Below the pieces are notes generated by a model. It did not search any database. It was not told the DNA's origin and was given only the letters and a program-made list of their open reading frames with translations. A stretch of 64,000 bases of DNA from Bradyrhizobiaceae bacterium (GTDB lineage Bacteria > Pseudomonadota > Alphaproteobacteria > Rhizobiales > Xanthobacteraceae): assembly GCA_947481635.1 (NCBI GenBank), contig CANKHJ010000003.1:5353-69352 (forward strand), given 5' to 3'. Numbering within the stretch: the first letter of the stretch is position 1; each line of letters starts with the position of its first letter. Positions 4,516 through 35,470 of this stretch are shown here, one piece after another. A program made the translations under genes and the position numbers.

Positions 4516-5493
4516 ATGATCACACAACGCGCTTTGCAGGTGGCCGCTCTGGTGGCCTGTTCGCTGTTTGCGGGCGGCAGTGCAACGCCAGCCGACGCGC
4601 AGGCCTATCCGTCGAAGCCGATCCGGACCATCGTGCCGTTCCCGGCCGGCACCGGCATGGACATTCTCGCGCGTCAACTGTCCGAGGGGATCAAGGCACG
4701 CACCGGCCAGGTGCTGGTGGTGGAGTCGCGGGTCGGCGCCGGCGCCACCGTTGCCATGGGCGTGCTGGCCCGGGCCAAACCCGACGGTTACACGATCGCG
4801 GTGTCTCCGGGCGTCAGCGCCAGCATCTATACGGTCAAGGAAATCCCCTACGAGCCGGTGAAGGATTTCGAGCGCGTCGCGACACTGGTCAAGGTGCCCT
4901 ACTTCCTGCTGATCAATCCGGAAAAGACGCCGGTCTCGTCGGTCAAGGAATTGACGGCGCTGCTCAAGGCCAAGAACGGCAAGGTGACATTCGGTTCGCC
5001 GAACACGCCGTCGCTGGTCGCAGCGAAGCTGTTTGCCAAGAATGCCGGCATCGATGCACAGCCGGTCGCCTATAAGAGCATGATGGACGCGATGCGCGAC
5101 CTGCAAGGCGGCGACTACGACTTCATGTTCAGCGACACCGGCTTCGCGCTCGGCGCGATGAAGACCGGCAAGGTGAAGGCACTCGGCGTCACGCTGGCGA
5201 ACCGGCTGGCGAGCGCGCCCGACGTTCCTACCATGGGCGAAGCCGGCGTGGCGGGCATCGATTTCTACGGCTGGATCGGCGTCTATCTCCCGGCCGGTGG
5301 ACCGCCGGAATTGACCGAGCAATTGAGCAAACTGGTCAACGATGTCGCCGCGTCGCCGGAGATGCAGAAATTCTACGTCGATAACGGCTATCAGCCGTTC
5401 GCGACCGGGCCGAAAGCCTTCACGGAATTCGAGGCGGAAAACTTCAAGCTGTGGGCGGACCTCGCCAAGCTCGCCGGCATTCAGCCGCAATAA
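4516..5493 (+). CDS. Bug-family (TctC-like) periplasmic substrate-binding protein
   Basis: A signal peptide is followed by AQAYPSKPIRTIVPFPAGTGMDILAR and KPDGYTI. The internal ATG at 4516 is in frame with the 4153..5493 ORF. Confidence 0.85.
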   Translation: MITQRALQVAALVACSLFAGGSATPADAQAYPSKPIRTIVPFPAGTGMDILARQLSEGIKARTGQVLVVESRVGAGATVAMGVLARAKPDGYTIAVSPGVSASIYTVKEIPYEPVKDFERVATLVKVPYFLLINPEKTPVSSVKELTALLKAKNGKVTFGSPNTPSLVAAKLFAKNAGIDAQPVAYKSMMDAMRDLQGGDYDFMFSDTGFALGAMKTGKVKALGVTLANRLASAPDVPTMGEAGVAGIDFYGWIGVYLPAGGPPELTEQLSKLVNDVAASPEMQKFYVDNGYQPFATGPKAFTEFEAENFKLWADLAKLAGIQPQ

Positions 5494-10325: not shown

Positions 10326-11873
10326 TCAACGCGGCGCGAGCCAGCGTGCACCGGCCAACACGCCAATGGCGGTCAGCCCTGCGAAAACCGCAAGCCAGGT
10401 TTCATTGGCGGCCAGCGCCGCCGTGCCGGCCCAGGAAATTGACGAAAACGCTTCGGCGAAGGTGGCCAAGCGCGACGAGGTCTGGCGGCGGCGGAAATGG
10501 CTGCGCTTGGCCTGCGCCCGGAACCAGAGCTGGATGAAAGTAGCCGAAGTGGCCGCTGCCAGGATGCCCACACCGGCCACCAGGGCGTGGAAGGCCGAAA
10601 ACGGCAGCAAGGCCGCCAGGAACGGCGCGAAAACAATGGCGATACAGCCGAGCACCGCCTCGACCTTGGCGCGGACCACGCGGCGCGGCGTCACCGGGGC
10701 GGTCGCGACCAGCTCCGGGGCGTCCTCGCCCGAGATCGCCAGCCAGGCCAGCCCGCCGGCCAATTGGCCGGACACCATCACCAGCACCGGCACCAGCACG
10801 ATCAGCGCGCCCGAGCCCTCCCGATGGCTGAGCCAGAGCAGCAGCGCCGGCGGCAGCAGGTAGAGCACCTGCATCAGCGACTGCGACATCAGCCACGGGT
10901 CGCGCAGCAGCAGCGTCCATTCCTTGCGCCGCAGCACGCGCGATGGCGACATCTGGCGGAAACGGTAGAAGCTTTGCGTCCGGCGCGACGCCGGGGCCTG
11001 CGAGGCGCCGGCGGCGGCCATGGCGTGGTCGCCGAAGCGGCGCGAGAATATCGCGATCGAGAAACCAATCGCCAGCAGGCAGGCCGCTACGACGACTGAG
11101 AGCGCAAAGGGATCGCCGAGCATCGCGCGCGCCGGCAGCCACAGCGGGCTGTCGATCGATGGCAACCCGTCGGACAGCGCCCCGGTCTCGAACAGATAGA
11201 GGCGCGACAGCGTGCCGTAGGACAGGATCGCCGCGATCTGGAGGCCGATCACGAAGGACGCACCGATTACCGCGGCGACGATCTGCGCCAGTAGCCGCGT
11301 ACGGCGGGGACCGAACATCCGGAACAGTGCAACTGTAATCGCAATCGCGATCGCGGCGGCGGCGACGCCGAGCGCCAGTACCACGCCGTAAGCGGCGATC
11401 CAGCGCGCGCCACCGCGCAGCACTAGGATATTGATGAACGGCGACGCGATCAGCACCGACATCAGCCCGACCGAGCAGGCCACCGCCGCGAGCCGCACCG
11501 CGAAGACGACGCGCGACGCCACCGGCGAAGAAAGGATCAGGTCGAGATCGGAGCGTGCATAGAAGGCGCGGGTCACCGATTCCATCGCCTGCGACAGCAC
11601 CAGGCACCATGACAGCAGTGCGGCGCCCGAGATGATCACGAGCGCGTCGTGATTGTCTGGGCCGACCTTGGCGTGCTTGCCGACCATCGAATTGGCGAGG
11701 AAATGCATGAACACCGCGAACAGCGCGAGACCGATCACGACATTGCGCGTGCGCCAGCGCTGGCCGGCGGTCATCATCGAGAACCAGTCACGCCAGGCAA
11801 TCCGCGCCTCGTGGCGGGCAAACCAAGCCATGGTGCCGGTGTTGCTGGCCGCGGACACTAGAGCGCGATCCAT
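10326..11873 (-). CDS. Polytopic membrane protein, putative permease partner of the upstream ABC ATPase
   Basis: The 515-aa protein has many hydrophobic segments. It lies co-directionally 67 nt downstream of the ABC ATPase gene. Confidence 0.6.
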   Translation of the reverse strand: MDRALVSAASNTGTMAWFARHEARIAWRDWFSMMTAGQRWRTRNVVIGLALFAVFMHFLANSMVGKHAKVGPDNHDALVIISGAALLSWCLVLSQAMESVTRAFYARSDLDLILSSPVASRVVFAVRLAAVACSVGLMSVLIASPFINILVLRGGARWIAAYGVVLALGVAAAAIAIAITVALFRMFGPRRTRLLAQIVAAVIGASFVIGLQIAAILSYGTLSRLYLFETGALSDGLPSIDSPLWLPARAMLGDPFALSVVVAACLLAIGFSIAIFSRRFGDHAMAAAGASQAPASRRTQSFYRFRQMSPSRVLRRKEWTLLLRDPWLMSQSLMQVLYLLPPALLLWLSHREGSGALIVLVPVLVMVSGQLAGGLAWLAISGEDAPELVATAPVTPRRVVRAKVEAVLGCIAIVFAPFLAALLPFSAFHALVAGVGILAAATSATFIQLWFRAQAKRSHFRRRQTSSRLATFAEAFSSISWAGTAALAANETWLAVFAGLTAIGVLAGARWLAPR

Positions 11874-11894
11874 CGCACTCTAGCCTTTTGCTTG

Positions 11895-11941
11895 AGCATG
11901 ATCTTTTCGGAAAACCGGGGTCCACTTTTCCGGATCATGCT
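11895..11941. repeat. Nested-palindrome REP-like element between the ABC ATPase and permease genes
   Basis: Outer inverted repeat AGCATGATC / GATCATGCT encloses an inner CGGAAAA / TTTTCCG repeat around the core AACCGGGGTCCACTT. A related core occurs at 48.87 kb. Confidence 0.6.
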
Positions 11942-12714
11942 TACGCCGCCTGCGCCCGCTCGGCGATGAGCGCGAGGAAGGTATCCTCCAGGCTGCGCGC
12001 CTTGTCGGCATCGCGGCCGTTGGTCTTTTCCGAAAGCTCGTGCAGTTCCTGCAAGGTGCCTTCCGCGATCAACTTGCCGCGCGCGATCACCCCTATGCGG
12101 TCGGCCATCCGTTCGGCGACTTCGAGGATATGTGTGGTCATGATCACGGTGCCGCCGGCGGTGACGCGCTCGCGCAGCACGTCCTTCACCTGGCGCGCCG
12201 AAGCGGCATCGAGGCCGGTGAGCGGTTCGTCGAGAATGATCAGGCGCGGGTCATGCACCAGCGCGCCGGCCAATGCCACTTTCTGACGCATGCCGCGCGA
12301 AAATCCCTCGCAGCGCTCATGCGCATGCGGCCCGAGCCCAAGCAGCGCGATCAGATCGCGGGCGCGGGTCTCGGCGCCCCGCGCATCGATGCCCCAGAGG
12401 CCGGCGACGAATTCGAGATATTCGTAAGGCGTGAGCTTGTCATAGATCATCGGCTCGTCGGACACCCAGGCGAGGATGCGCTTGGCCTCGACCGGATCGC
12501 GCCGCGCGTCGATCCCGAACACCGAGATCGCGCCGGCGTCAGGCTGCATCAGCCCGGCGACCATGCGCAAAGTGGTGGTCTTGCCGGCCCCGTTGGGGCC
12601 AAGCAGCGAATAGAATTCGCCGGCGCGTACCGTGAGGTCGAGTTGGTCGACCGCGGGGCGGTCGAACCGCTTCACCAGGCCGCGGATTTCGAGGGCAGGA
12701 AGGGCTGGGGTCAT
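11941..12714 (-). CDS. ABC transporter ATP-binding protein
   Basis: Walker A GPNGAGKTT, signature SRGMRQKV and Walker B LIILDEP are present. Confidence 0.9.
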   Translation of the reverse strand: MTPALPALEIRGLVKRFDRPAVDQLDLTVRAGEFYSLLGPNGAGKTTTLRMVAGLMQPDAGAISVFGIDARRDPVEAKRILAWVSDEPMIYDKLTPYEYLEFVAGLWGIDARGAETRARDLIALLGLGPHAHERCEGFSRGMRQKVALAGALVHDPRLIILDEPLTGLDAASARQVKDVLRERVTAGGTVIMTTHILEVAERMADRIGVIARGKLIAEGTLQELHELSEKTNGRDADKARSLEDTFLALIAERAQAA

Positions 12715-12884
12715 GATGCCCTCAGGCTAGCCGAGAGAAGTTTCGCCGCGGTGAATGCCGCCACAAAAACCGGCGATGCCCCGGAAATCGCACGGAAATT
12801 TGAGTTGATTCACTGTGCCTTGCTCCGCCCACGGCTTGTTTTGGGAATCGCACTGGCCGATCCTTGCCATTTGGGGGAGTTCCA

Positions 12885-13085
12885 ATGAGCGGCGTCGCCG
12901 TCTTTCTCTGGCTGGTCGGGGCCTACGTGGCGATCGGCATCGCCATGGCGCTGGCCTTCGTGACGATCGGGCTGGGGCGCGTCATGCCGCATACGCGCGT
13001 GACGACCGGCGCGCGCATCCTGTTCGCGCCCGGCGCCGCCGCGCTGTGGCCGCTGATCCTGTCGCGCTGGCTGGCCGCGCGATGA
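12885..13085 (+). CDS. Small two-helix membrane protein (66 aa), unknown function
   Basis: GGGGGAG lies 6 nt upstream of the ATG at 12885. There are two hydrophobic stretches. The stop overlaps the next ATG (ATGA). Confidence 0.4.
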   Translation: MSGVAVFLWLVGAYVAIGIAMALAFVTIGLGRVMPHTRVTTGARILFAPGAAALWPLILSRWLAAR

Positions 13086-13180
13086 GGCGTTCGCTGCGCA
13101 GGACGCACCGCAGGCTCTGGCCGCTGCTGCTGATCGTGGTGGGGCTCGGCTTCGCGCTCGCTTTGGGCCTGCGCTCGTGA
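13082..13180 (+). CDS. Mini membrane peptide (32 aa), tentative
   Basis: A basic N-terminus is followed by one TM helix (LWPLLLIVVGLGFALALGL). It overlaps upstream by ATGA and downstream by GTGA. Confidence 0.25.
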   Translation: MRRSLRRTHRRLWPLLLIVVGLGFALALGLRS

Positions 13181-14217
13181 GCGCCGGCTTCCAGGCGGTG
13201 CAATGGGGCCGCGCGAAATATATCTACGACGCAATTCTGCTCGGCTGCGTCACGGCCTATGTCGGCGGCTTTGCCCTGATCGCGTGGCGGGTCACGCCGC
13301 CGAAAAATCTTGCCGATCAGATCGACATCTTCATCCGTGCTTTTGGAAGCTGCGCCTTCCTGATGCTGACGGCGATCCTGTGCATCGGGCCGCTGGCGCG
13401 GCTCGACCAGCGCTGCCTCAAGGCATTGTATAACCGCCGTCATTTCGGCGTGCTGACATTCCTGGTCGCGGCGACGCATGCCTGGCTGATGATCGAGTGG
13501 TACCTCGCGCAGGGCAACCTGCAAAACCTCGGCAACGAACTCATCACCTGGGCGGATTACGCCAAGTTCATCGGCTTCCCGTTCAAGACGCTCGGCATGG
13601 CCGCGCTACTGGTGCTGTTCCTGATGGCGGCGACCAGCCATGACTTCTGGCTCGCCTTCCTCGGTCCGAAGGTGTGGAAGGCGCTGCATATGGCGCTTTA
13701 TGTTGCCTATGGGCTGGTGGTGATGCATGTCGCGCTCGGCATCATGCAATATGAGCGCACGCCGTTGGTCCCGATCATGCTGATCGGGGGCTTCGGCGCC
13801 GTCGTGACGCTGCACCTGATCGCGGCCTTTCGCGAACACAAAGCCGACCGCGGCAAACCCGCGCGCGACGGCTGGCTCGCGGTCGGGCCGCCGCTCTCGA
13901 TTCCCGACAAATGCGCGCGCATCGTAGTGGCCGACGGCGGCGAGCGCATCGCGGTGTTCCGCGACGGCACGCAGGTCGGTGCGCTGACCAACCTCTGCGC
14001 GCATCAGAATGGACCGCTCGGCGAAGGACGCATCATCGACGGCTGTGTCACCTGCCCGTGGCATGGGTGGCAATACCGGCTGGCCGACGGACGCGCGCCG
14101 GAACCCTTCACCGAAAAGGTCGCGACGCATCGCGTTCGGCTGGTCGACGGCATCATCGAGGTCGACGTCAATCCATTGCCGCCGGGCACGCCAGCGGCCA
14201 TTCAGGTTCCGCTCTAG
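13177..14217 (+). CDS. Ferric-reductase-type (heme-b) six-TM domain fused to a C-terminal Rieske [2Fe-2S] domain
   Basis: There are six hydrophobic helices. His pairs occur in helix 3 (RHFGVLTFLVAATH) and helix 5 (LHMALYVAYGLVVMH). The C-terminus carries CAH-x16-CPWH. Confidence 0.75.
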   Translation: MSAGFQAVQWGRAKYIYDAILLGCVTAYVGGFALIAWRVTPPKNLADQIDIFIRAFGSCAFLMLTAILCIGPLARLDQRCLKALYNRRHFGVLTFLVAATHAWLMIEWYLAQGNLQNLGNELITWADYAKFIGFPFKTLGMAALLVLFLMAATSHDFWLAFLGPKVWKALHMALYVAYGLVVMHVALGIMQYERTPLVPIMLIGGFGAVVTLHLIAAFREHKADRGKPARDGWLAVGPPLSIPDKCARIVVADGGERIAVFRDGTQVGALTNLCAHQNGPLGEGRIIDGCVTCPWHGWQYRLADGRAPEPFTEKVATHRVRLVDGIIEVDVNPLPPGTPAAIQVPL

Positions 14218-14230
14218 TCAAGGACACGGC

Positions 14231-15337
14231 ATGGCAGGCGAAGATTGGATCGATCTCGGCGCGAGTGCGGAGCTGTCGACGATGCCGCTGCGGCCGGTGA
14301 CGGCGCGTAGCACCAGCATCGCGCTCTCGTATCGCGACGGTGAATTCGGGGCGGTGTCGAATACCTGCAATCACGTTGGCGGTCCGCTCGGCGGCGGCAC
14401 GCTCGACGGCGACTACATCGTCTGCCCGTGGCATGCGTGGAAATTCCATCGCCGCAGCGGCGCGGGCGAGCCGGGCTTCGAGGATGACTGCGTGCCGTCC
14501 TATCCGGTCAAGGTCGAGAACGGCCGCGTGCTGGTCAATCTCGCCGCCGCGAGCAAACGCAACAGGAAGCCGCATGCGGCGCATCCGCTGACGCGCGATG
14601 TCACGCGCGCGCCGGGAAAGCTCCGGCTCGCGGGCATCTCGACCACCGTGATGGATCCCGGCCTGCCACGCTTCTCGGGATCGGACCATCTGCTCGACGC
14701 CGCGCTGACGGAAGCTCGCACGCTCGGAGCGGAGACACAGATCATCCGCCTCAACGACCTGAAATTCCGTGCCTGCGAGGGCTATTATTCCAAGGGCGCA
14801 CAGGCCTGCACCTGGCCCTGCTCGATCACCCAGATGGATTCGACCGACCAGATGGACCAGGTCTACGAGGCGCTGGTGCATTGGGCCGACGCGATCATCG
14901 TGGCGTCGCCGATCCGCTGGGGCGCTGCGTCATCGCTCTATTTCAAGATGGCCGAGCGGCTCAATTGCGTGCAGAATGCGATCACGACGCGTAACCGTGT
15001 CCTGATCCGCAACAAGGTGGCCGGCTTCATCATTGTCGGCGGTCAGGACAATATCCAGGGCGTCGCCGGACAAATGCTCGGCTTCTTCGCCGAGCTCGGC
15101 TTCATCTTTCCGCAATTTCCCTATATCGCCCATTCGCGCGGCTGGTCGCGCGAGGATATGGAACGGAATATCGAAGTGGTGCGGACATCGAAAGAACTGG
15201 CCGAAGGCGCTTCGATGCTGGCGAAACGCTGCCTCGATCTCGCCGCACACCTGATCGCGCAGGACGAGGCGCCCGCCTCGATCGAACGCGGCGGTCGCAA
15301 AGCCCATCTGATCGATACCGATGCATCCATTGGGTGA
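14231..15337 (+). CDS. Rieske [2Fe-2S] domain fused to an NADPH-dependent FMN-reductase/flavodoxin-like domain
   Basis: The N-terminus carries CNH-x16-CPWH. The C-terminal part (LRLAGISTT...ADAIIVASPIRWG...GFIIVGGQDN) is typical of Isf/FMN-reductase-like flavoproteins. The ATG at 14231 is in frame with the 14009..15337 ORF. Confidence 0.75.
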   Translation: MAGEDWIDLGASAELSTMPLRPVTARSTSIALSYRDGEFGAVSNTCNHVGGPLGGGTLDGDYIVCPWHAWKFHRRSGAGEPGFEDDCVPSYPVKVENGRVLVNLAAASKRNRKPHAAHPLTRDVTRAPGKLRLAGISTTVMDPGLPRFSGSDHLLDAALTEARTLGAETQIIRLNDLKFRACEGYYSKGAQACTWPCSITQMDSTDQMDQVYEALVHWADAIIVASPIRWGAASSLYFKMAERLNCVQNAITTRNRVLIRNKVAGFIIVGGQDNIQGVAGQMLGFFAELGFIFPQFPYIAHSRGWSREDMERNIEVVRTSKELAEGASMLAKRCLDLAAHLIAQDEAPASIERGGRKAHLIDTDASIG

Positions 15338-16115
15338 CGTGACCGACGATTTATGGACCGAGGTTCCGGCACTGTTGCGTACCGGGACAGCGCCGCTGCC
15401 CGCGCCGTGGGAAGGCCGGTTCGGCCCGCTGCGCGCGGGCGTGACCGACGATCTCGTCGTGGTCGCGCAAATGGGCCAATCGCTTGACGGCCGCGTCGCG
15501 ACGCGCAGCGGGCATTCGCACTATATCAACGGACCGAGTGGTCTGGCGCATCTGCACCGGCTGCGCGCGGTGACCGACGCGGTGGTGGTCGGCGTCGGCA
15601 CCGCCATCGCCGACGATCCGCAGCTCACCGTGCGCCACTGCGCCGGCCCCTGCCCGGCCCGCGTGGTGATCGATCCGCGCGGCCGGCTGCCGGATACGGC
15701 GCGGCTGCTCGCAGATGACGGCGCGCGCCGCATCGTCGTGACCGGCAACAATCTCGGGCGGACCTGGCCGGCTGGCGTCGAGGCGATCGCGCTGGCGCGC
15801 GAGAACGGCTCGATCGAGCCGGCCGAAATTCTCGCCGCGCTGGCGCAACGCGGCCTCACGCGCATCCTGATCGAAGGCGGCGGCAACACCGTCGCGCGCT
15901 TTCTGGTGGCGCGATGCCTCGACCGGCTGCATATCGTGGTCGCGCCGCTGATCTTCGGCAGCGGACGGCCGAGCCTCTCGCTGGCGCCGATCGACAATGT
16001 CGACGAAGCGCTGCGGCCGCCGATGGGAATCCACGACCTCGGCGGCGAAGTGCTGTTCGACTGCGACTTGGCGGCCTACCGGCGCCCGATCGGGCGCGCA
16101 AAAAAATCGATGTGA
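15321..16115 (+). CDS. RibD C-terminal-domain (DHFR-like fold) reductase
   Basis: Motifs MGQSLDGRVAT, HRLRAVTDAVVVGVGTAIADDPQLTVR and ILIEGGGNT are present. The gene overlaps the upstream gene by 17 nt. Confidence 0.75.
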   Translation: MHPLGDVTDDLWTEVPALLRTGTAPLPAPWEGRFGPLRAGVTDDLVVVAQMGQSLDGRVATRSGHSHYINGPSGLAHLHRLRAVTDAVVVGVGTAIADDPQLTVRHCAGPCPARVVIDPRGRLPDTARLLADDGARRIVVTGNNLGRTWPAGVEAIALARENGSIEPAEILAALAQRGLTRILIEGGGNTVARFLVARCLDRLHIVVAPLIFGSGRPSLSLAPIDNVDEALRPPMGIHDLGGEVLFDCDLAAYRRPIGRAKKSM

Positions 16116-16879
16116 CCGACGCGCAGCTCGCTTGATCCCGCGCTGATCAATTCGCGGCGGCGCGTGAACCAGCCGGCGACAATGGCAAGCGATGTATCCA
16201 TGCTGCGCGCGATACCGGCATAGCCGTTCAACAATTCAAGTTGGATGGCCTTGTCCGAACGATCGAGCACCCAATCGCTCTCTTTGAGATCGACCTTGTA
16301 TCCGACCCGGCGGAAACGCCGCACCGCCGTCATGGCGGCTTCGGGTCCAAGCGCTGCGCCGAAGCCTTTCTCGCTACGCTGATGCCGGTTCACCGCGGAG
16401 ACGACAGTGGCATCCCCATCCTCCTCCGGCGTGAAAATGATGCGGCCGTCATAGTTCAGCGTTGCGTAGAACGGGAGATGCCGCGCGGCCAATTCGGTCA
16501 CGAGACGATCGAGCCATTCCTGCGACACGAGATCGAGCAATGCCGAGGTGGTGACGAGATCGACCGCCCCATCCAGCGCCGCCTCGAGATCATGCGCAAG
16601 ATCCACCGGCGTGGTCGCGACAGCCACGCGGGATGAAGGCGGCGCGGACACGCGCGCCAGCAGGCTGAGGTCGTTGTCGACCAGCCGCCAGCGCTGATGC
16701 ATCGGCAGGTGGGGGGACAGGGCGCGCATCGCGGCGCCGGTCCCGCTGGCGAGATCAACGACTGAAATCGAATGACGTTCAGAGGCCCAGGCTTTGACCG
16801 CCTCCAGCAGCAGGGGGTTGCGCGCACGCTCATCATACGGTTCGCGCAGCGCCAGCCAGTCTGACGAAAAGCCGCTCAA
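16076..16879 (-). CDS. Class I SAM-dependent methyltransferase
   Basis: VVDLASGTGAA is a motif-I-like sequence. The gene overlaps the upstream GT4 gene by 4 nt. Confidence 0.7.
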   Translation of the reverse strand: MSGFSSDWLALREPYDERARNPLLLEAVKAWASERHSISVVDLASGTGAAMRALSPHLPMHQRWRLVDNDLSLLARVSAPPSSRVAVATTPVDLAHDLEAALDGAVDLVTTSALLDLVSQEWLDRLVTELAARHLPFYATLNYDGRIIFTPEEDGDATVVSAVNRHQRSEKGFGAALGPEAAMTAVRRFRRVGYKVDLKESDWVLDRSDKAIQLELLNGYAGIARSMDTSLAIVAGWFTRRRELISAGSSELRVGHIDFFARPIGRR

Positions 16880-17928
16880 ATCACCGCCTCGATCGCGCGC
16901 GCGACGCGCGCGGCGGCGTCGCTCCAGGTCGGGAAATTTTGCGCGGCCTTACGCGCCGCAGCGGAAAACCTCCGTCGCTCGTCAGGGCTTGCGATCAGGC
17001 GGCGCAACGCCGCGGCCAGTGCCGGAACGTCGCCAGGGGGGACCAGAAGGCCGGCGCCGTGCGGCACCGCCTCAGGAATAGCGCCCCCGGTGGTGCCGAT
17101 CACCGGCAGGCCATGCGCCAGCGCTTCGGTATAGGCCATACCATAGCCTTCGTAATGCGAGGCCAGCACGAACAGATCCGCGCCATCGTAAAGCTCGGCG
17201 AGACGTTCATGCGAGACACCGCCGGCGAGAACAACGCGGTCGCCCAATCCAAAATGGGCGATGTCGGCCTTGAGCTGACGCAGCATCTCGGCACTGCGGT
17301 CGGGATCCCCGGCGATGATGAGGTTCCAAGGCAGGTCGGTCAGCGTCGCCAGCGCCGCGACCAGCAGATCATGCCCCTTGCGCGGCACGATGGCGCCGAC
17401 GCTGAGCAGCGATACGCTATCCGCGTGGCTGCCGCGCGCGGCCTGGAAACGGTCGGTGCCAGGCAGCGCAACGGTGATGCGCCCGCGCGGCACGCCGTAA
17501 CTCTCGACCAGGATGCGCTCGGTGGTCACGCTGGTCGCGATCACGGCGCGCGCACAGGCAAGCGCGTCGCGCTCGCTATTAAGCAAACGCGCGGCATCGG
17601 CCCTGCTCCATCCCGTCTCCAATGCGAGCGGATGATGCACCAGCGCGATCAGCGGATGCGAAAGCTGCAAGTCTGCGACAATCTCCGGAATGAGGCCGTA
17701 GACCAGACCATCGATCAGCAGCGGGGTGCCTGAAGGCACCGATGCGAGTTGCTGCCGTGTGGTCGCGAGCGTCGCCGTGTCGGGCCGCGGATAACCGCTG
17801 CCGACATCGAGGAAATCCGCGTCCCAGCCGATACCTCGCAGCTCCTCGATCACGCGACGGTCATAAGCATAGCCGCCAGTCAGTTGCGCGTAGTCGCCGG
17901 AAATGCCGAACGCAACCCGCTTCACCAC
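16876..17928 (-). CDS. GT4-family (group 1) glycosyltransferase
   Basis: The C-terminal half contains PRKGHDLL and LFVLASHYEGYGMAYTEALAHGLPVIGT (an EX7E-type motif). Confidence 0.8.
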   Translation of the reverse strand: MVKRVAFGISGDYAQLTGGYAYDRRVIEELRGIGWDADFLDVGSGYPRPDTATLATTRQQLASVPSGTPLLIDGLVYGLIPEIVADLQLSHPLIALVHHPLALETGWSRADAARLLNSERDALACARAVIATSVTTERILVESYGVPRGRITVALPGTDRFQAARGSHADSVSLLSVGAIVPRKGHDLLVAALATLTDLPWNLIIAGDPDRSAEMLRQLKADIAHFGLGDRVVLAGGVSHERLAELYDGADLFVLASHYEGYGMAYTEALAHGLPVIGTTGGAIPEAVPHGAGLLVPPGDVPALAAALRRLIASPDERRRFSAAARKAAQNFPTWSDAAARVARAIEAVI

Positions 17929-18323
17929 AAGGCGGCCTCATACCACGCGCGCGCCACATGGGATTCCGAGATCGTGATGCGGATGGCGGCGAGTTCGCGG
18001 CCCTCACGGCCCAAGGCGCCGGAACGTGCGGCGGCCGCCAGATGATCGAAGATATGCTTGGTCAGGAACTCGGTAGTGGTGTTCTTGCCTTCCAGGCCGG
18101 GCGCGGTATCGAGATTGCGATAATTCAGCGGCGCCAGCGTTTCCTTGAGCACCTCATGCGCGCGGCCGATGTCGATAACGATGCCGTTGGCATCGAGTGC
18201 CTCGGACATGAATGCGGCATCGATGACGAAGGTCGCGCCATGCAGCGCCTGCGCCGGGCCGAACACCGCCCCGCGAAATGAATGGGCGATCATGATGTGG
18301 TCACGGACTTCGACGGCAAACAC
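17922..18323 (-). CDS. 6-pyruvoyl-tetrahydropterin synthase / QueD-family protein, atypical
   Basis: FAVEVRDHIMIAHSF...LHGATFVID has the family architecture. A GTG start at 18323 has GAGG 8 nt upstream. The longer 166-aa ORF is rejected. Confidence 0.65.
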   Translation of the reverse strand: MFAVEVRDHIMIAHSFRGAVFGPAQALHGATFVIDAAFMSEALDANGIVIDIGRAHEVLKETLAPLNYRNLDTAPGLEGKNTTTEFLTKHIFDHLAAAARSGALGREGRELAAIRITISESHVARAWYEAALW

Positions 18324-18348
18324 GGAAAAGACCTCGGAGTTTAAGTGG

Positions 18349-19326
18349 CTAATAATCGATGCGCTGGCACAAAACGCCGCTGCCAGGCGCAAGGATGTGC
18401 GGCAGGCGCACCGGCAGGTCAACGAAATTCACCGCCGGCGCGATCAGGCTTTCGAGAACCGGATCGGCCAACAGCGCGAGCGCGGCTGCGAGGCGGCGGC
18501 GATGCGACCAGCGCGCGCGATGCGATGGCGCGACCTGCCCGACCTGGCTCGACATGAGCTTCAGGCGGCGGCTGTGATATGCGCCACCGAGCGGCAGCGT
18601 CACGTGATCGGCGCCATACCAGCTGATATCGAGGATCGTTGCCTCGTCGCCCGCGAGCGTCAGCGCGGTGGCCAGCCCCTTGCCGCTGCCGCTCGCATGG
18701 ACCACCAGATCGCAATCCCCCGGCGCATCTTCCGGAAGGGCGAAGCCGACCCCAAGCGTGGTTGCCAGCGCGGCGCGCGCGGGGTTGACGTCGATCAGCG
18801 TGACCCGCGCACCGGGCAGCTTTCCGCATAGCCAGGCGACCAGTGCCCCGACCACGCCGGCCCCGATGACGGCAATGTGATCGGCCGGCCCGGGCGCGGC
18901 ATCCCACACCGCATTCAGCGCCGTCTCCATGTTGGCCGCTAGAATGGCGCGGGCGGGCGGCACGTTGTCGGGGAGCGGCACCGCCGCGTCCGAGGGAATG
19001 ACGAAGCGGGTCTGGTGTGGGTGGAGCACAAAGACCTTGCGGCCGATCAATGCGGACGGGCCGGCCTCGACCACCCCGACGGTGGAATAGCCGTATTTCA
19101 CCGGGAACGGAAAGCTGCCGCCCATGTACGGAGCACGCATTCGCTGGTGTTCGCTGGGCGGCACCCGCGCCGCGAAAATCAGCGCCTCGGTGCCGCGGCT
19201 GACCGCGCTATGCAGCGCCGCCACGCGGACATCGCCGGCGCCGACCGGCGCCACCGCCTCCTCCCGCAACTCGACGCGGCCGGGGGCCGAGTACCATAAT
19301 GCGCGCGCCGTATCGTTTGCTGCCAC
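18349..19326 (-). CDS. Zn-binding/medium-chain dehydrogenase-reductase (MDR) family protein
   Basis: GxGxxG is present (VIGAGVVGALVAW) with MDR-like layout. I chose the GTG start at 19326. The Arg/Pro-rich N-terminal extension of the 488-aa ORF is rejected. Confidence 0.7.
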   Translation of the reverse strand: MAANDTARALWYSAPGRVELREEAVAPVGAGDVRVAALHSAVSRGTEALIFAARVPPSEHQRMRAPYMGGSFPFPVKYGYSTVGVVEAGPSALIGRKVFVLHPHQTRFVIPSDAAVPLPDNVPPARAILAANMETALNAVWDAAPGPADHIAVIGAGVVGALVAWLCGKLPGARVTLIDVNPARAALATTLGVGFALPEDAPGDCDLVVHASGSGKGLATALTLAGDEATILDISWYGADHVTLPLGGAYHSRRLKLMSSQVGQVAPSHRARWSHRRRLAAALALLADPVLESLIAPAVNFVDLPVRLPHILAPGSGVLCQRIDY

Positions 19327-19400
19327 ACTCGCCCCATCATGGTTTTGCGGTTGCCGACCGGCTATATCCTGCCCGAAGAATACGGAATTCGGAACCGAAG

Positions 19401-21923
19401 ATGCTGGAGCGCACACAGGCGCATATGTCAGTGGGCGCAACGCGGTCACTTGCCGCCCGGCGGGCGCTGTTTGCCGCGCTGGTGGCCGCGACCTGCGTGG
19501 CGGTGCTGGCGCTGTTCGCCCTGGTCTTGTCCCCCGGCGGAATCGGCCTCGTCGACGGCGTGATGATCGCGCTGCTGGCGATCCCGCTGCCATGGTCGGC
19601 AATCGGCTTCTGGAACGCGACCATCGGCCTGATCCTGATGCGCTTCGCCCGCGATCCGGTCGGCGCTGTATGCCCGCCCGCAATCCGCGTGCATGACGAC
19701 GCGCCGGTGCTGGCCTCGACCGCAATCCTGATGTGCATCCGCAACGAGGATCCGGATGTCGTGTTGCGCAACCTCGACGTGATGCTGACGCAACTCGCGG
19801 CGACCGGCGAGGCACGGCGGTTTCATCTCTATGTGCTGAGCGATACCAACCTGCCGGCTATCGCGGCGCAAGAGGATGCTCGGTTCGGCGCCTTGACCGC
19901 ACAATGGCTCGAGCGCGTCGCGATCACCTACCGGCGACGCGACAGCAACGAGGGGTTCAAAGCCGGCAACATCAAGGATTTCTGCGAGCGCTGGGGCGCG
20001 CAGCACGACTTCGCGATCACGCTCGACGCCGACAGCGTGATGCCGGCCGCCGCGATGCTGCGCCTGGTGCGCATGATGCAGAACGAGCCGCGCATCGGCA
20101 TCCTGCAAGGCCTGGTGATCGGGATGCCCTCGACCAGCGCCTTTGCACGGCTGTTCCAGTTCGGCATGCGGCTCGGCATGCGCTCCTACACGCTCGGAAG
20201 CGCGTGGTGGCAGGGCGATTGCGGGCCCTATTGGGGGCACAATGCGATCCTGCGGCTTGCGCCGTTCATTGCCCATTGCCAGATCCCTGACACGCCGGCG
20301 CGCGGACCGCTCGGCGGTCCGATCCTGAGCCACGACCAGATCGAAGCGGTGCTGATGCGCCGCGCCGGATATGAAGTGCGGGCAGTGCCGCGCGAGGACC
20401 TCGGCTGGGAGGAGAACCCGCCAACGCTGCTCGAATTCCTGCGCCGCGACCTGCGCTGGTGTCACGGCAACATGCAATATTGGCGCTTCCTGCGGATGCC
20501 GGGCCTGTTGCCGACCAGCCGAGTGCAACTCGTGCTGGCGATGCTGATGTTTGTCGGATCGCCGGTCTCGGCAGTGATGGTGCTGCTGATCTGCGCGAGG
20601 CTGCTATTGTCCAACGAGCCGTTCCTGCGCGTCGACGCGGCGATCGGGTTATTCGCCGTGATGCTGACGATGGCTTTCGCGCCCAAGATCGCAACCGTAA
20701 TCGACGTGCTGATGCGCGCCGACCTGCGCAAGGGCTATGGCGGCGCACCGCGTTTCATCGCGAGTGTGGCCGCAGAGACGGTATTCGCGACGTTGCTTGC
20801 GCCGGTGATGTGGTTCGCGCACTCGATCTATCTCGGCGGGCTCCTGCTCGGGCGCACCATTGGCTGGAACGCGCAGACGCGTAGCGACCATGCGGTGCCG
20901 TTCTCGCTCGCTGTACAGACTTTGTGGCCGCACACATTATATGGCGGCCTGGTCCTGGCGATGATCGCCGCAAGCGCACCGGGCGCCCTGCCCTACGCGC
21001 TCTATTTTGTCGCTGGACTGGCCTTGGCCATTCCGTTTGCGATGCTGACGGCGTCACCCGCCCTCGGACGCCTTCTTGTCCGTACCGGCCTTGGACGGCT
21101 GCCGGAGGAAACCGACCCGCCGCCCGCGCTGCGGGCGCTGCGGCTGCCCGCCATCGAAGCAGCGTCATCGTCGGCGAGACTGCGGGACAGGATCCGGAGC
21201 GCGCGCGGCGTGATCCGTTCGCTGCGCATCTATTACGGCCATCGCGCGCGACGTGAGGCGATGGACCGCCTCTACGCGCAATTCATCAAACCGGGCGATC
21301 TGGCCTTCGACATCGGCGCCCATGTCGGCGACCGCATTGGGTGTTTCCGGCGGCTCGGAGCCAAGGTGGTCGCTGTCGAGCCCCAGCCGCCGCTGATACG
21401 GACGCTACGCCTGCTCTATGGCCGCGATGCCGCGGTCGCGATCGAGCCAGCAGCAGTCGGGGCCGTGGCTGGCACGACGCTGCTCAGGCTCAATGTCGAC
21501 AATCCGACGATCTCGACCGCGTCCGAGGACTTCATTGCCGCGGCGAATGATGGAGCGGGCTGGCAGGGCCAGACCTGGGATCGCACGATCGAGGTCGCGA
21601 CCACTACGCTCGATGACCTGATCGCACGTCACGGCATGCCGGCCTTCATCAAGATCGACGTCGAGGGTTTCGAACTGCAGGCGCTGACGGGGCTGAATCA
21701 TTCCGTCGCTGCGCTGTCATTCGAGTTCACCACGATCCAACGCGACGTCGCGCTGGCCTGCGTCGACCGTTGCGTTGCCTTGGGTTACCGTTCATTCGGC
21801 GCGGCGCTCGGCGAAAGCCAGGTGTTGATCGAACGGCGCCGCAGCGCCGAAGAGATCAAAAGCTGGCTAACGGGCCTGCCCGAAGACGCCAATTCCGGGG
21901 ACATTTATGCGACCCTGGCGTGA
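19401..21923 (+). CDS. opgH: OpgH/MdoH-like GT2 glucan glucosyltransferase fused to a C-terminal FkbM-family methyltransferase domain
   Basis: The GT2 part carries LSDTN, DADS and RRDLRWCHGNMQYW plus multiple TM helices. The C-terminal roughly 200 aa carry FDIGAHVGD and IKIDVEGFELQAL (FkbM). It is one continuous frame. Confidence 0.75.
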   Translation: MLERTQAHMSVGATRSLAARRALFAALVAATCVAVLALFALVLSPGGIGLVDGVMIALLAIPLPWSAIGFWNATIGLILMRFARDPVGAVCPPAIRVHDDAPVLASTAILMCIRNEDPDVVLRNLDVMLTQLAATGEARRFHLYVLSDTNLPAIAAQEDARFGALTAQWLERVAITYRRRDSNEGFKAGNIKDFCERWGAQHDFAITLDADSVMPAAAMLRLVRMMQNEPRIGILQGLVIGMPSTSAFARLFQFGMRLGMRSYTLGSAWWQGDCGPYWGHNAILRLAPFIAHCQIPDTPARGPLGGPILSHDQIEAVLMRRAGYEVRAVPREDLGWEENPPTLLEFLRRDLRWCHGNMQYWRFLRMPGLLPTSRVQLVLAMLMFVGSPVSAVMVLLICARLLLSNEPFLRVDAAIGLFAVMLTMAFAPKIATVIDVLMRADLRKGYGGAPRFIASVAAETVFATLLAPVMWFAHSIYLGGLLLGRTIGWNAQTRSDHAVPFSLAVQTLWPHTLYGGLVLAMIAASAPGALPYALYFVAGLALAIPFAMLTASPALGRLLVRTGLGRLPEETDPPPALRALRLPAIEAASSSARLRDRIRSARGVIRSLRIYYGHRARREAMDRLYAQFIKPGDLAFDIGAHVGDRIGCFRRLGAKVVAVEPQPPLIRTLRLLYGRDAAVAIEPAAVGAVAGTTLLRLNVDNPTISTASEDFIAAANDGAGWQGQTWDRTIEVATTTLDDLIARHGMPAFIKIDVEGFELQALTGLNHSVAALSFEFTTIQRDVALACVDRCVALGYRSFGAALGESQVLIERRRSAEEIKSWLTGLPEDANSGDIYATLA

Positions 21924-22839
21924 CGCGCTCGGCGCCGTAGCGATCTCGCTCCTGTTCGCTGGGACCTCGCATGGCGAACCGCTTGCGGTGCGGGTGATCA
22001 ATGCCAGCAAGCCGACGCAATGCGCCGAGACCGACAACGTCTATCTCAAGCTGACATCGCGCGCGACCCGGCGCTTCACCATCGAGGCGCGGCATCCCGG
22101 CTACATCACGGATATCGTCAAAGACAGCATGGATCCGGACTTCGGCCGCTGCGACATGTCGCGCGATCCTTCTTTCAAGTTCGAGCCGCGCAAGGTGACG
22201 TTGTACCAGGATCAGGACTGGATGCTGGTCGGCTACACTTTCCCGACCAACTGGCGGCCAACCAAAGTCCCGGTGCGCGTCGGCGACCGTACCGAGGACG
22301 GGCTGCACCTGGTGCAGGTGTGGAAACGCGTCGGCGCGGATTTTTATGAAGCGCTGGTGGTGTATCCGTCCGACGGCTATTGGCGCGCGAGGCCGCTGGC
22401 GCCGCCAAACTTGAAGGAGGCCGGTTATGGTTCGTCATTCCTGATCGGCCCGATCGAATTCGGTGGACGACCGCTGGTCGCGTTCCGCGAGATCGCGTTC
22501 GATCCGGCCGCGCGCACGATCCGCGTCGCTTTCGCACGCGGCGGCACGGCCACACTGCGCATCGACGCGCTCACCAGCGAACGACAGACGCTGGACGTTC
22601 GGTTCGACCGGGCAATCGCCGGATCGTTCGCCGCGTTGCGCTCGATGTTCGTCAGCGAGACCAATGCCGACGTGGCGCAAATCGCGTGGCACCGCAAAGG
22701 CACCACGCCGCAGCCTAAAATGCCGATCATGGACTTCAAGCGCGCGCGTGCGGCCGAGGTTTGGACCGGGCGCACCACGCCATCGCTCCACAACATGAGC
22801 GCGCCGGACACCGTGTTCAAGGATTTCGCGACCCGCTAG
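21907..22839 (+). CDS. Exported protein of unknown function (310 aa)
   Basis: The signal peptide is MRPWRDALGAVAISLLFAGTSHG. The gene overlaps opgH-fkbM by 17 nt. I recognise no motif. Confidence 0.6.
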   Translation: MRPWRDALGAVAISLLFAGTSHGEPLAVRVINASKPTQCAETDNVYLKLTSRATRRFTIEARHPGYITDIVKDSMDPDFGRCDMSRDPSFKFEPRKVTLYQDQDWMLVGYTFPTNWRPTKVPVRVGDRTEDGLHLVQVWKRVGADFYEALVVYPSDGYWRARPLAPPNLKEAGYGSSFLIGPIEFGGRPLVAFREIAFDPAARTIRVAFARGGTATLRIDALTSERQTLDVRFDRAIAGSFAALRSMFVSETNADVAQIAWHRKGTTPQPKMPIMDFKRARAAEVWTGRTTPSLHNMSAPDTVFKDFATR

Positions 22840-22845
22840 GGCGGG

Positions 22846-24612
22846 CTATTCCGCCGCCGCATCCGCGGTCATGAATTGCGCACGCGCCAGTGCGGCGAAG
22901 GCGCCCCCACGCGCGAATAATTCATCGAAGCTGCCGCTCTCGATGATCCGGCCATTCTCGAAGACCAGAATGCGCGTCGCCTTGCGCACCGTTGCGAGGC
23001 GATGCGCGATCACGAAGGTGGTGCGGTTTTTCATCACCTCGTCGAGCGCCGCCAACACCTTGGCCTCAGTCGTTGCATCCAGCGCGCTGGTGGCCTCGTC
23101 GAGAATCAGGATCGGCGGATCCTTGAGCAAGGCTCGCGCGATCGACAAGCGCTGACGCTCGCCACCGGACAGCATCCGGCCGCGCTCGCCGACGCGCGAC
23201 TGGAAGCCGTCCGGCGCGCGCTCGATGAAATCCAGCGCCTGGGCGCGTTGCGCGGCGGAACGCATCTCCTCCTCGGTCGCGTCGGGCTTTCCGGCATGCA
23301 GATTGTCCGCGATCGAGCGGTTGAACAGCAGCGTCTCCTGGAACACGACGCCGATATTGCGCCGCAGCGCGCCGAGCTTGAGCTCGGGCAGGTCGACGCC
23401 GTCGATCTTGATCGAACCGGATTGCGGATCGAAGGCGCGGTGCAGCAGCGCGAGCGAGGTGGATTTGCCGGCGCCGGTCGGGCCGACCAGCGCGATCATT
23501 TCGCCAGGCTTTGCGGTGAAGTTCAGTTCCGCCACCGCCGGCATGCGTCCGTCATAGGAGAACGACACGTTCGAAAACGCGACCTCGCCGACCGCACGGC
23601 CGGGATCGATCGAATCCGGCCGGTCGCGCAGGCTCGGCCTAGTGTCGAGCACCTCGAAGAATTCGCGCAGCCGCGGCGCGTCCCAAACCATCCGGTTGAC
23701 GAAGCCGATGGTGCTTTCCATGCGGCCGATCACCATGACCGCGAAGTTCATGAAGGTGACCATCTCGCCGATGGTCGCGAGGCCTTGTAGCGAGAGCCAG
23801 GTGCCGATGATGATGATGCAGAGAATGGTGATCGTGGTTCCGGCGCGGGTGAGCACGGTCGCGAGCGCCCACCACGACAGCACCGGGATCTGCGCCGCCA
23901 GCAACCGCTCGGCGACGCTGCGCAGCCCCGAGACCTCGGCTTCGATGCGCGCGTAGCTTTGCACCAGCGCGATATTGCCGAGCGTGTCGGACGCGCGTTC
24001 GGCAAGATCGCTGTAATGGCGCTCGACCGCGCTCTGCATCTTGTCGGTCTTGCGCACCAGCAGGATCGCCAGCAGCGCAAAGCCTGCGCACAGCACGACC
24101 AGCAGCAATGCGAGCCGCCAGTTGAGAAACAGCGACAGCGGCAGCAGCACCAGCAGCGAGATGAACGCGGACATATGCTCGCGGAAAAAGCCGAGCCACA
24201 TCGCCCAGAGCGAATCCGTGCCTTGCAGCATCACCTTCATCAGGCGGCCGGAATGCGTGCCCGAGTGATAGGCCAGCGGAAGCTGCAGCACATGCTCGAA
24301 ATAATCGGTCAGCACCGCCTGGCGGCGGCGATGCGCCAGCCGGTCGGCATGCAGCGCCACCAGCGTCCCGCACAGGATTGAGAACAGGCCGAAGCCGGCC
24401 CAGGCGGCCAGCAGCACAATCAGCGTCGTCAGGACCGCGTTGTTCTTATCCGCCTGGATCATGGTCAGCGCGTCGATGATGCGGCCGAACAGGATCGGTT
24501 CGGCGAATTGCGCGGACGCCAGCGCCACGTTGGCGAGCGCGAGCGTCCAGCCGAGCCGCCGTTCCGACCCGAGCTCGCGCAGCACCCGTTGATACAGACG
24601 AACGAAATCCAT
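22846..24612 (-). CDS. ndvA: NdvA/ChvA-like glucan exporter (fused ABC permease-ATPase, 588 aa)
   Basis: The N-terminal [13 protein letters not shown] box matches what I remember of NdvA/ChvA. Walker [10 protein letters not shown], signature LSGGERQR and Walker [10 protein letters not shown] are present. Confidence 0.7.
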
Positions 24613-35370: not shown

Positions 35371-35470
35371 TGTTTCCTCCCTGACACGGCAAATATGCGC
35401 CACGCGCATTTGACGGATTTGATGAAATGGACAATAGGCTAGATGAGTGACCCTTTGCAACGAGGGGGCA

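Follow-up and report, generated by a model that had tools for sequence, protein, structure and literature searches.

We describe a cluster of five genes in a 64,000-nucleotide stretch of a Bradyrhizobiaceae genome (GenBank assembly GCA_947481635.1, contig CANKHJ010000003.1, positions 5,353 to 69,352 of the forward strand), hereafter the window. The cluster includes a relative of 6-pyruvoyltetrahydropterin synthase (PTPS) and QueD, and a first-pass annotation of the same DNA had read it as a pathway to a methylated pterin glycoside. A six-frame listing of open reading frames (ORFs), together with direct reading of the minus strand, confirms the following gene set.

15321-16115, plus strand: RibD_C-family reductase, ATG start, 264 aa; convergent with the methyltransferase gene
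16076-16879, minus strand: class I S-adenosylmethionine (SAM)-dependent methyltransferase-like protein (MT), TTG start, 267 aa
16876-17928, minus strand: retaining glycosyltransferase of family 4 (GT4), GTG start, 350 aa
17922-18323, minus strand: T-fold protein of the PTPS-IV subfamily, GTG start with GAGG 8 nt upstream, 133 aa
18349-19326, minus strand: oxidoreductase of the medium-chain dehydrogenase/reductase (MDR) superfamily, predicted NAD-type, BchC- or polyol-dehydrogenase-like and without zinc ligands, GTG start, 325 aa; first gene of the operon

As read from the sequence, a gap of 25 nt separates the MDR gene (alcohol dehydrogenase, ADH, in operon shorthand) from the PTPS-like gene, which overlaps the GT4 gene by 7 nt (GTGGTGA); the GT4 and MT genes overlap by 4 nt (TTGA). 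The convergent 3' ends of the RibD_C and MT genes overlap by 40 nt. The five genes, their order, gaps and overlaps are thus as the first-pass annotation gave them. An independent gene call on identical metagenomic contigs returns the same genes, including the same 840-aa OpgH-FkbM product from the gene divergent from the operon.

The operon is not peculiar to this genome. We scanned one genome per GTDB species for PTPS-IV proteins, found at least 594 relatives and analysed the best 80 loci. Neighbouring families were counted within ±10 kb and are called recurrent when common to at least three of the 80 loci; 56 loci with at least 6 kb on either side are treated as complete. The four-gene order ADH-PTPS-IV-GT4-MT recurs in 73-76 of the 80 species-level loci, with catalytic motifs at least 95% conserved, and the cluster is therefore not a chance assembly. 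Occurrence in the complete loci is as follows.

MDR oxidoreductase: 55/56
MT: 55/56
GT4: 52/56
RibD_C reductase: 39/56
OpgH-like glycosyltransferase of family 2 (GT2): 38/56
GTP cyclohydrolase II (GCH II): 17/56
cytochrome b561: 17/56
creatininase family: 13/56
membrane protein without Pfam or NCBIfam match, read from sequence as sulfatase-like: 8/56
CDP-alcohol phosphatidyltransferase: 7/56
any envelope-type neighbour: 48/56

The co-occurrence of the MDR, MT and GT4 genes with PTPS-IV bears out the earlier proposal of a single functional unit. All five cluster proteins are under purifying selection with intact cofactor motifs, because catalytic and cofactor motifs are conserved across their homologues. 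The 80 loci come from Alphaproteobacteria, Betaproteobacteria (Polynucleobacter, Alcaligenaceae), Xanthomonas, a metagenome-assembled genome of Acidobacteriota, and Actinomycetospora. Further carriers, among plasmid records, are Methylosinus trichosporium OB3b, Agrobacterium, Rhizobium, Thiodictyon, Streptomyces, Microbacterium and Arthrobacter, and the cluster is abundant in soil metagenomes.

The PTPS-like protein matches PF01242 with 71 bits, above the Pfam cut-off, so its assignment to the broad PTPS/QueD family stands. Within that family we can place it more closely. Among solved structures it lies nearest to SCO6650 of Streptomyces coelicolor (PDB 3D7J; E = 2.5e-43 over 132 residues), and it carries the FGPAQ motif, which the literature gives as the signature of PTPS-IV (PMC5445326); F21-G22-P23-A24 is invariant in the subfamily alignment. 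The protein therefore falls in PTPS-IV and not among PTPS-I, PTPS-II, PTPS-III or QueD; comparison with PTPS-I, PTPS-III and QueD had been proposed.

Alignment of PTPS-IV with E. coli QueD and human PTPS indicates how far the subfamily has departed from a working PTPS or QueD enzyme. Two of the zinc-binding histidines are kept (H14 and H28); the third is Ala30 (LHGATF versus LHGHSF), and this histidine is lost in all 21 of the 21 aligned PTPS-IV members. The catalytic cysteine loop (CxxxHGH or CxxxxxHGH), or ExxHGH, is gone, with the invariant FGPAQ instead. The Asp-His dyad is likewise lost, LDH(H/K) having become LNYR, with N67 and Y68 at the two positions. What remains are the anchors of the ring: E120, T83 and E85 do not vary between PTPS-IV, E. 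coli QueD and human PTPS, and the Thr-Thr-Glu loop T83-T84-E85 is present in the window protein. Spoonamore et al. in 2008 reportedly found SCO6650 to be without zinc, without a catalytic triad and without the PTPS reaction, with a pterin-like binding pocket retained. To our knowledge, T-fold proteins with the conserved Glu anchor have only purine or pteridine-type ligands. We assign the protein to PTPS-IV, and by its residues it is not a canonical 6-pyruvoyl- or 6-carboxy-tetrahydropterin synthase. Because the catalytic residues are lost, and given what is said of SCO6650, the conversion of dihydroneopterin triphosphate that is established for PTPS enzymes would not be transferable to it.

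We consider in this light the name that the protein's homologues carry in databases. RefSeq, through PGAP, gives PTPS-IV proteins the name '6-carboxytetrahydropterin synthase' and a queuosine GO term (as in loci L081, L082, L087 and L089), which would make the gene a QueD of queuosine biosynthesis. The QueD model TIGR03367 gives 34 bits where its cut-off is 89, there is no CxxxHGH motif, and QueC, QueE and QueF are missing from the recurrent neighbour families. We give this identification almost no credence. The PGAP names for PTPS-IV and for the zinc-less MDR protein ('zinc-binding alcohol dehydrogenase') are probably over-annotations that have been widely propagated.

Several further observations concern the subfamily itself. 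Two or three PTPS-IV domains stand in tandem in some proteins of 373-855 aa (P0136, P0138, P0142, P0146, P0148, P0168); such chains would amount to a covalently joined T-fold trimer. About 400 extra residues without a Pfam match are also present in P0136 and P0148. A Rosetta-stone check of PTPS-IV fusions, which took in triple-tandem proteins and longer chains, found no added Pfam domain, apart from one probable ADH-PTPS read-through. On a plasmid of Streptomyces anthocyanicus (L088), a PTPS-IV paralogue of 48% identity lies outside the cluster, beside genes for MEKHLA-domain, cupin and MBL-fold proteins, so that at least one other genomic context exists for the subfamily.

The RibD_C protein is the second point at which the cluster departs from the earlier reading, which took it for a DHFR-fold dihydropterin reductase of the DmrA type. 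It scores 136 bits against Pfam RibD_C, above the cut-off, and stays below the curated families TIGR00227 (127 versus a cut-off of 150) and TIGR01508 (106 versus 186). By these scores it is related to the riboflavin reductase equivalog models yet outside them. Its best PDB matches, 2AZN of M. jannaschii and 6P8C, are archaeal-type 2,5-diamino-6-ribosylamino-pyrimidinone 5'-phosphate reductases; bacterial RibD proteins rank after them, and DHFR is reached only at E = 4e-4. In 57 cluster-linked homologues, G91, T94, D98, E185, G186 and G187 are at least 95% conserved. Mutagenesis of yeast RIB7 has shown that T79, D83, E180 and G182 are required (PMC3631187), and these correspond to T94, D98, E185 and G187 of the window protein. 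One further position sets the specificity of such reductases: it is Lys in bacteria, whose substrate is the 2-oxo form, and Thr (fungi) or Asn (archaea) where the 2-amino form is the substrate (PMC3631187). In the window protein this position is Gln50, as it is Gln in 55 of the 57 homologues, and hence not the bacterial-type Lys. Together, the archaeal reductases as nearest structures, the full catalytic set and Gln50 in place of Lys lead us to the pyrimidine-reductase assignment. The evidence favours a putative ribosylamine reductase that takes the 2-amino form rather than a DmrA-like dihydropterin reductase; the full set of pyrimidine-reductase residues and the distant match to DHFR speak against the earlier proposal, short of proof.

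The neighbourhood points to the same chemistry. GCH II genes are present in 26 of the 80 loci by tblastn, and no GTP cyclohydrolase I (GCH I), FolB, FolK, SPR or PCD is found among the recurrent neighbour families. The classical pterin supply that the first-pass annotation had assumed is thus not what accompanies the cluster; the neighbours are GCH II and a creatininase-type formamidase, and no GCH I or other pterin gene recurs. In combination, GCH II, the creatininase-family protein and RibD_C would form the entry to an archaeal-style riboflavin pathway. A creatininase-family protein with the relevant activity is known from the Rhizobiales: BrbF deformylates 2-amino-5-formylamino-6-ribosylamino-pyrimidinone 5'-phosphate in Sinorhizobium and Brucella (PMC9478397). 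The published neighbourhood of PTPS-IV includes PF00925 and PF01872 (PMC5445326). That paper, on AGeNNT, calls PF00925 'GTP cyclohydrolase I / FolE2'; PF00925 is GTP cyclohydrolase II in Pfam, and the published neighbour is therefore of the RibA type and not FolE2.

The GCH II proteins of the cluster differ between lineages. At the position of E. coli RibA Tyr105, the Streptomyces protein has Met and the proteobacterial proteins have Tyr. According to Spoonamore et al. in 2006, the Met change reportedly makes SCO6655 release the formamido product. We considered whether the creatininase gene tracks this Met variant. It does so in Streptomyces only; proteobacterial GCH II has Tyr with or without a creatininase gene.

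The window copy of the cluster has no GCH II gene of its own. In the sister locus L002 (12220-14324), where the PTPS-IV protein is 81% identical, a GCH II gene separates RibD_C from the two redox genes that the window also has, Rieske-FMN-reductase and ferric-reductase-Rieske. In the window the GCH II gene is cleanly absent from this place, and the stop of the Rieske-FMN-reductase gene overlaps the RibD_C start by 17 nt (15321-15337). The window copy is a typical member of the cluster, with nothing special about it, that has lost its linked GCH II; the enzyme is presumably supplied from elsewhere in the host genome. No deaminase is found in the cluster, and because of this the 2-amino group is probably kept, which fits the ring-anchoring Glu of the T-fold protein.

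These results bear on two readings of the locus. In the first, which is that of the first-pass annotation, GCH I would feed a PTPS, the MDR protein would reduce the side chain, RibD_C would act as DmrA does, and GT4 and MT would complete a methylated pterin glycoside. The gene set does resemble PTPS, sepiapterin reductase and a pteridine glycosyltransferase; the ring anchors E120 and T83-T84-E85 are kept, and RibD_C has the fold of DHFR and matches it weakly. Against this, the catalytic Cys, the Asp-His dyad and the third zinc His are missing across the subfamily, RibD_C has the complete pyrimidine-reductase residue set with archaeal reductases as its nearest structures, and it is GCH II and creatininase, not GCH I, FolB, FolK or SPR, that recur. 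We regard this canonical route as quite improbable.

The second reading makes the cluster an accessory route to a deazaflavin (F420/Fo) or flavin precursor. Zallot et al. (2016), citing unpublished work, state that PTPS-IV is involved in F420 synthesis (PMC5041015). GCH II with a RibD-type reductase is the ribitylaminopyrimidine branch common to riboflavin and Fo, and a gene of the F420-dependent PPOX class lies near the Streptomyces cluster. Among the recurrent neighbours, though, there is no FbiC/CofGH, CofD or CofE and no lumazine or riboflavin synthase. A deaminase that would give the uracil form is also lacking, and the GT4, MT and envelope partners would have no role in F420 or riboflavin synthesis. 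This explanation strikes us as very unlikely.

The three remaining core proteins suggest what might be done to such a pyrimidine. The MDR and MT proteins match Pfam weakly, and we backed their assignments by searching the PDB with profiles built from alignments of related loci. For the MDR protein, ADH_zinc_N reaches 18.6 bits (cut-off 31.8), ADH_N is undetected, and the bchC model TIGR01202 gives 48 bits. Its profile matches 85 MDR structures, with galactitol-1-phosphate 5-dehydrogenase at the top (E = 1.9e-10) and iditol, sorbitol and xylitol dehydrogenases next. The description of the protein as an MDR or zinc alcohol dehydrogenase relative is therefore right as to the fold and fails as to the metal, since the zinc ligands are replaced: a Cys is Ser43 in an invariant SRGTE, and GHE is GYS (G79-Y80-S81). 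The Rossmann GxGxxG is kept, with G155, G157, G160 and D179 invariant, and the Asp at the end of β2 suggests NAD, not NADP, as the likely cofactor.

The glycosyltransferase matches Glycos_transf_1 (PF00534) with 128 bits, above the cut-off, and among 71 homologues its EX7E motif (E260...E268) and R183/K184 show at least 95% conservation; the best NCBIfam match, the exopolysaccharide transferase EpsE, is well under its cut-off. The MT protein reaches 21.8 bits against Methyltransf_25 (Pfam cut-off 27), and the best PDB matches of its profile are mostly SAM methyltransferases, all of them weak (E ~1e-3). Its motif I, VDLASGTGA (D42, G46, G48), and D68/D70 and D116 are invariant, and PGAP labels its homologues class I SAM-dependent methyltransferases.

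Beyond the operon lie genes of a different character. In the window these are the following.

19401-21923, plus strand: membrane GT2 of the OpgH/MdoH type with a fused FkbM methyltransferase, 840 aa; divergent from the operon
21907-22839, plus strand: 310-aa protein downstream of OpgH-FkbM, no Pfam or NCBIfam match
22846-24612, minus strand: glucan ABC exporter of the ChvA/NdvA type (NF010178)

The OpgH-like protein reaches 517 bits against the MdoH model NF003958 (cut-off 419); it also passes NF003962 and fails NF003963. Its C-terminal FkbM domain scores 80 bits. FkbM is either fused to OpgH, as in the window, or encoded by a separate gene downstream (20 loci), and this association suggests an O-methylated glucan or a methyl-capped product. 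The ABC exporter scores 886 bits against NF010178 (cut-off 733), and such a gene is near the cluster in 12 loci; OpgC-like genes are found in five. Homologues of the 310-aa protein occupy the same position in about six loci. No OpgG partner was identified, as the 310-aa protein, which is without a family match, is the only unassigned one beside OpgH; no search aimed at OpgG was made. A protein of about 440 aa with long hydrophobic stretches is encoded downstream of OpgH/FkbM in locus L023 (5043-6410) and in eight other loci; it has no Pfam match, has a faint match to a putative glycosyltransferase family, and is absent from the window.

In Betaproteobacteria, the MT gene of the cluster has been relocated and shares an operon with the OpgH-like gene and the NdvA-like ABC exporter, which argues for joint action of the envelope genes and the core. 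Other lineages have a different envelope partner. The Thiodictyon operon has the order ADH-PTPS-IV-GT4-MT-cytochrome b-RibD-CDP-alcohol phosphatidyltransferase. In Microbacterium, a CDP-alcohol phosphatidyltransferase gene heads the operon and a lysyl-PG-synthase-type transmembrane protein follows MT. In Streptomyces fungicidicus, the CDP-alcohol phosphatidyltransferase gene diverges from the operon, which is followed by creatininase and ribA.

The envelope genes could be taken to explain the whole locus. The cluster would then serve a polysaccharide or periplasmic glucan only, with the PTPS-like and RibD_C proteins acting on sugar or polyol substrates and with GCH II and creatininase as chance neighbours from riboflavin synthesis. 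The first-pass annotation had itself named consistent embedding in polysaccharide or queuosine pathways as an outcome that would speak against a pterin product; the polysaccharide part of this is what we find, with an OpgH-type gene adjoining the cluster in 38 of the 56 complete loci, and no queuosine gene is among the recurrent neighbour families. Recurrent FkbM, OpgC-like and NdvA-like genes, the Betaproteobacterial MT within the OpgH/ABC operon and the EpsE match of GT4, well under cut-off as it is, agree with a glucan. The actinobacterial and some proteobacterial versions, on the other hand, keep the core without any OpgH-like gene, while RibD_C, GCH II and creatininase track the core across phyla. 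Glu-anchored T-fold proteins are, as far as we know, found only with ligands of the purine or pteridine type. A glucan by itself seems to us an unlikely account.

Redox genes flank RibD_C on its other side. In the window these are two fusions, defined by their Pfam domains.

13177-14217, plus strand: ferric-reductase-type di-haem membrane domain fused to a Rieske domain
14231-15337, plus strand: Rieske domain fused to an NADPH-dependent FMN reductase

Both are unusual fusions, translationally coupled to RibD_C. In the identical contigs (L083), two tiny ORFs of 32 and 66 aa lie upstream of them. The first-pass annotation supposed that this redox module might use or recycle the product. The pair itself turns out to be lineage-specific, present in 1-2 of the 80 loci; the equivalent position is held in about 21 other loci by a co-oriented gene for cytochrome b561, a di-haem membrane protein. 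The presence of cytochrome b561 or of the ferric-reductase-Rieske protein in the same place is a hint that electron transfer across the membrane is repeatedly needed.

With a little more confidence than doubt, we read the locus as an orphan PTPS-IV cluster of the SCO6649-6655 type, which occurs in Alpha-, Beta- and Gammaproteobacteria and in Actinobacteria. Its product is probably an envelope-linked pyrimidine or pteridine compound, derived from GTP and bearing a sugar and a methyl group. A decorated heterocycle derived from GTP is the most economical product class because of what the core contains: a T-fold protein whose pocket is of the pterin/purine type, two oxidoreductases that depend on nucleotides, a retaining GT4 and a class I methyltransferase. 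In the pathway that we envision, GCH II would open GTP to 2,5-diamino-6-ribosylamino-4(3H)-pyrimidinone 5'-phosphate, joined in some lineages by the creatininase-type formamidase. RibD_C would then use NADPH to reduce the ribosyl to a ribityl group with the 2-amino group retained. The zinc-less, NAD-type MDR protein and the zinc-less PTPS-IV protein would transform the resulting 2-amino-4-oxopyrimidine polyol phosphate by a chemistry that is putative. GT4 would attach a sugar and MT a methyl group. Finally, the product may be passed to the envelope, in the window via the OpgH-like GT2-FkbM protein and the NdvA-type exporter. A CDP-alcohol phosphatidyltransferase may take the place of this partner in Streptomyces, Microbacterium, Thiodictyon and some Proteobacteria, and a membrane b-type cytochrome would often stand alongside, its place being taken in the window by the ferric-reductase/Rieske pair.

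Several points weigh against this proposal. GCH II is absent from the 64-kb window in a homologue search and from about two thirds of the loci, and RibD_C is missing in 17 of the 56 complete loci; from these absences it follows that the GTP/pyrimidine module is not strictly needed in cis. Gln at the specificity position of the reductase is without a characterised precedent. The match of the MDR protein to polyol dehydrogenases spans chiefly the Rossmann domain. The statement of Zallot et al. (2016) on F420 (PMC5041015) does not obviously fit an envelope role. The neighbourhood evidence cannot separate a product that goes to the envelope from separate functions that are co-regulated. Finally, we infer the product and the functions of the proteobacterial cluster proteins from families, residues and neighbours.

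A more specific form of the proposal deserves mention, and we advance it only as a long shot. The cluster could encode a route to a pterin of the dihydroneopterin-phosphate type that dispenses with GCH I, the product being tethered to the envelope or exported and redox-active in the periplasm. Once GCH II had opened GTP, RibD_C would reduce C1' with NADPH and the MDR protein would re-oxidise C2' with NAD+, the sum of the two steps being the Amadori rearrangement carried out by GCH I. The pyrazine ring would then be closed, possibly on the zinc-less PTPS-IV protein, and GT4 and MT would decorate the side chain. The product could be primed onto an OpgH-made glucan or linked via the CDP-alcohol phosphatidyltransferase, and the periplasmic pterin could be serviced by a membrane di-haem cytochrome (b561 or, in the window, the ferric-reductase-Rieske protein). 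If this variant is true, the methylated pterin glycoside of the first-pass annotation would be right as a product class and wrong in its enzymology.

GCH I itself offers a parallel. It shares the T-fold with PTPS-IV and binds a 2-amino-4-oxopyrimidine ligand; the two have no sequence similarity apart from the fold. The later steps of GCH I, which follow ring opening (Amadori rearrangement and ring closure), need no zinc. A zinc-less PTPS-IV protein could conceivably carry out this later chemistry on the product of GCH II.

The closest known relative of the window cluster is the PTPS-IV cluster of Streptomyces coelicolor around SCO6650, of the class described by Phillips et al. (2012) and Zallot et al. 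(2016). The two share FGPAQ, the same lost residues and the order ADH-PTPS-IV-GT4-MT, and genes for a RibD-family protein, GCH II and creatininase are found near clusters of this type. They differ in their envelope partners: the proteobacterial version has an OpgH-like GT2 (with FkbM) and often an NdvA-type exporter, and Actinobacteria have the CDP-alcohol phosphatidyltransferase. They differ as well in GCH II, with proteobacterial Tyr against Streptomyces Met, and the window is without this gene.

Three other systems are comparable in part. The archaeal and fungal steps of riboflavin synthesis (ArfA/GCH III, ArfB, ArfC/Rib7), together with rhizobial BrbF, show the same combination of an enzyme that opens GTP, a formamidase of the creatininase family and a RibD_C-type reductase. 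Our cluster differs from them in having no deaminase, lumazine synthase or riboflavin synthase, in Gln where those reductases have Asn, Thr or Lys, and in the coupling of this module to a T-fold protein, a GT4 and an MT that have no role in riboflavin synthesis. The pterin glycoside pathways of cyanobacteria and green sulfur bacteria (PTPS-II, SPR, BGluT/PgtA) likewise use, by general knowledge, a COG0720 protein, an oxidoreductase and a group-1 glycosyltransferase, and cyanopterin carries a methyl group. In contrast, the COG0720 protein of our cluster is without the PTPS apparatus, the oxidoreductase is a zinc-less MDR and not a short-chain dehydrogenase/reductase, and no GCH I is linked. As for osmoregulated periplasmic glucan (OPG) systems (OpgH/MdoH, OpgC, ChvA/NdvA), the OpgH-like protein and ABC exporter of the window pass cut-offs of the glucan families. 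Here, however, OpgH is fused to FkbM (or, elsewhere, followed by it) and is tied to a gene set of the GTP/pyrimidine type, for which we know of no parallel in OPG systems.

Other features of the window have a looser relation to the cluster or none that we can see. No riboswitch that would name a sensed metabolite came out of Rfam scans covering the whole window and seven diverse loci, and a promoter and terminator scan of 12700-19700 gave counts not above those of shuffled controls. On the minus strand at 10326-12714, genes for an ABC ATPase (257 aa) and a hydrophobic protein of 515 aa flank the redox genes. The 515-aa protein has no family match in precomputed Pfam annotation; both genes are kept in the identical metagenomic contigs, and a link to the cluster is not evident. 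Five paralogues of one family of about 320 aa are scattered through the window (4534-5490, 34417-35388, 49018-49965, 55006-55884 and 61985-62893). They are 33-41% identical to the query by tblastn, and the family recurs in related loci. By their sequence they are putative periplasmic solute-binding proteins of the Bug/TctC type.

The PTPS-IV cluster is a known orphan, with a structure from 2008 and a gene neighbourhood from 2017, and the window copy is a further member. The first-pass annotation knew of no such pathway in Bradyrhizobiaceae; the neighbourhood, at least, is not new, having been published in 2017 (PMC5445326). Our search of the literature on SCO6648-6655, PTPS-IV, COG0720 with a glycosyltransferase, and GCH II with creatininase and PTPS found no functional characterisation. 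As far as this literature shows, two things are new: the systematic link to OpgH-like genes, CDP-alcohol-transferase genes and membrane cytochromes, and the residue-level case for a pyrimidine-type reductase.

PTPS-IV has been an orphan of structural genomics since the structure of SCO6650, and RefSeq still labels its members QueD and assigns them to queuosine. Our analysis points to a pathway that is probably fed by GTP chemistry of the riboflavin type and not by that of classical PTPS, and it narrows the search to an envelope-associated, probably redox-active glycoconjugate derived from GTP. If this proposal is true, the cluster would define a new class of bacterial cell-envelope metabolite, and thousands of annotations would be corrected.

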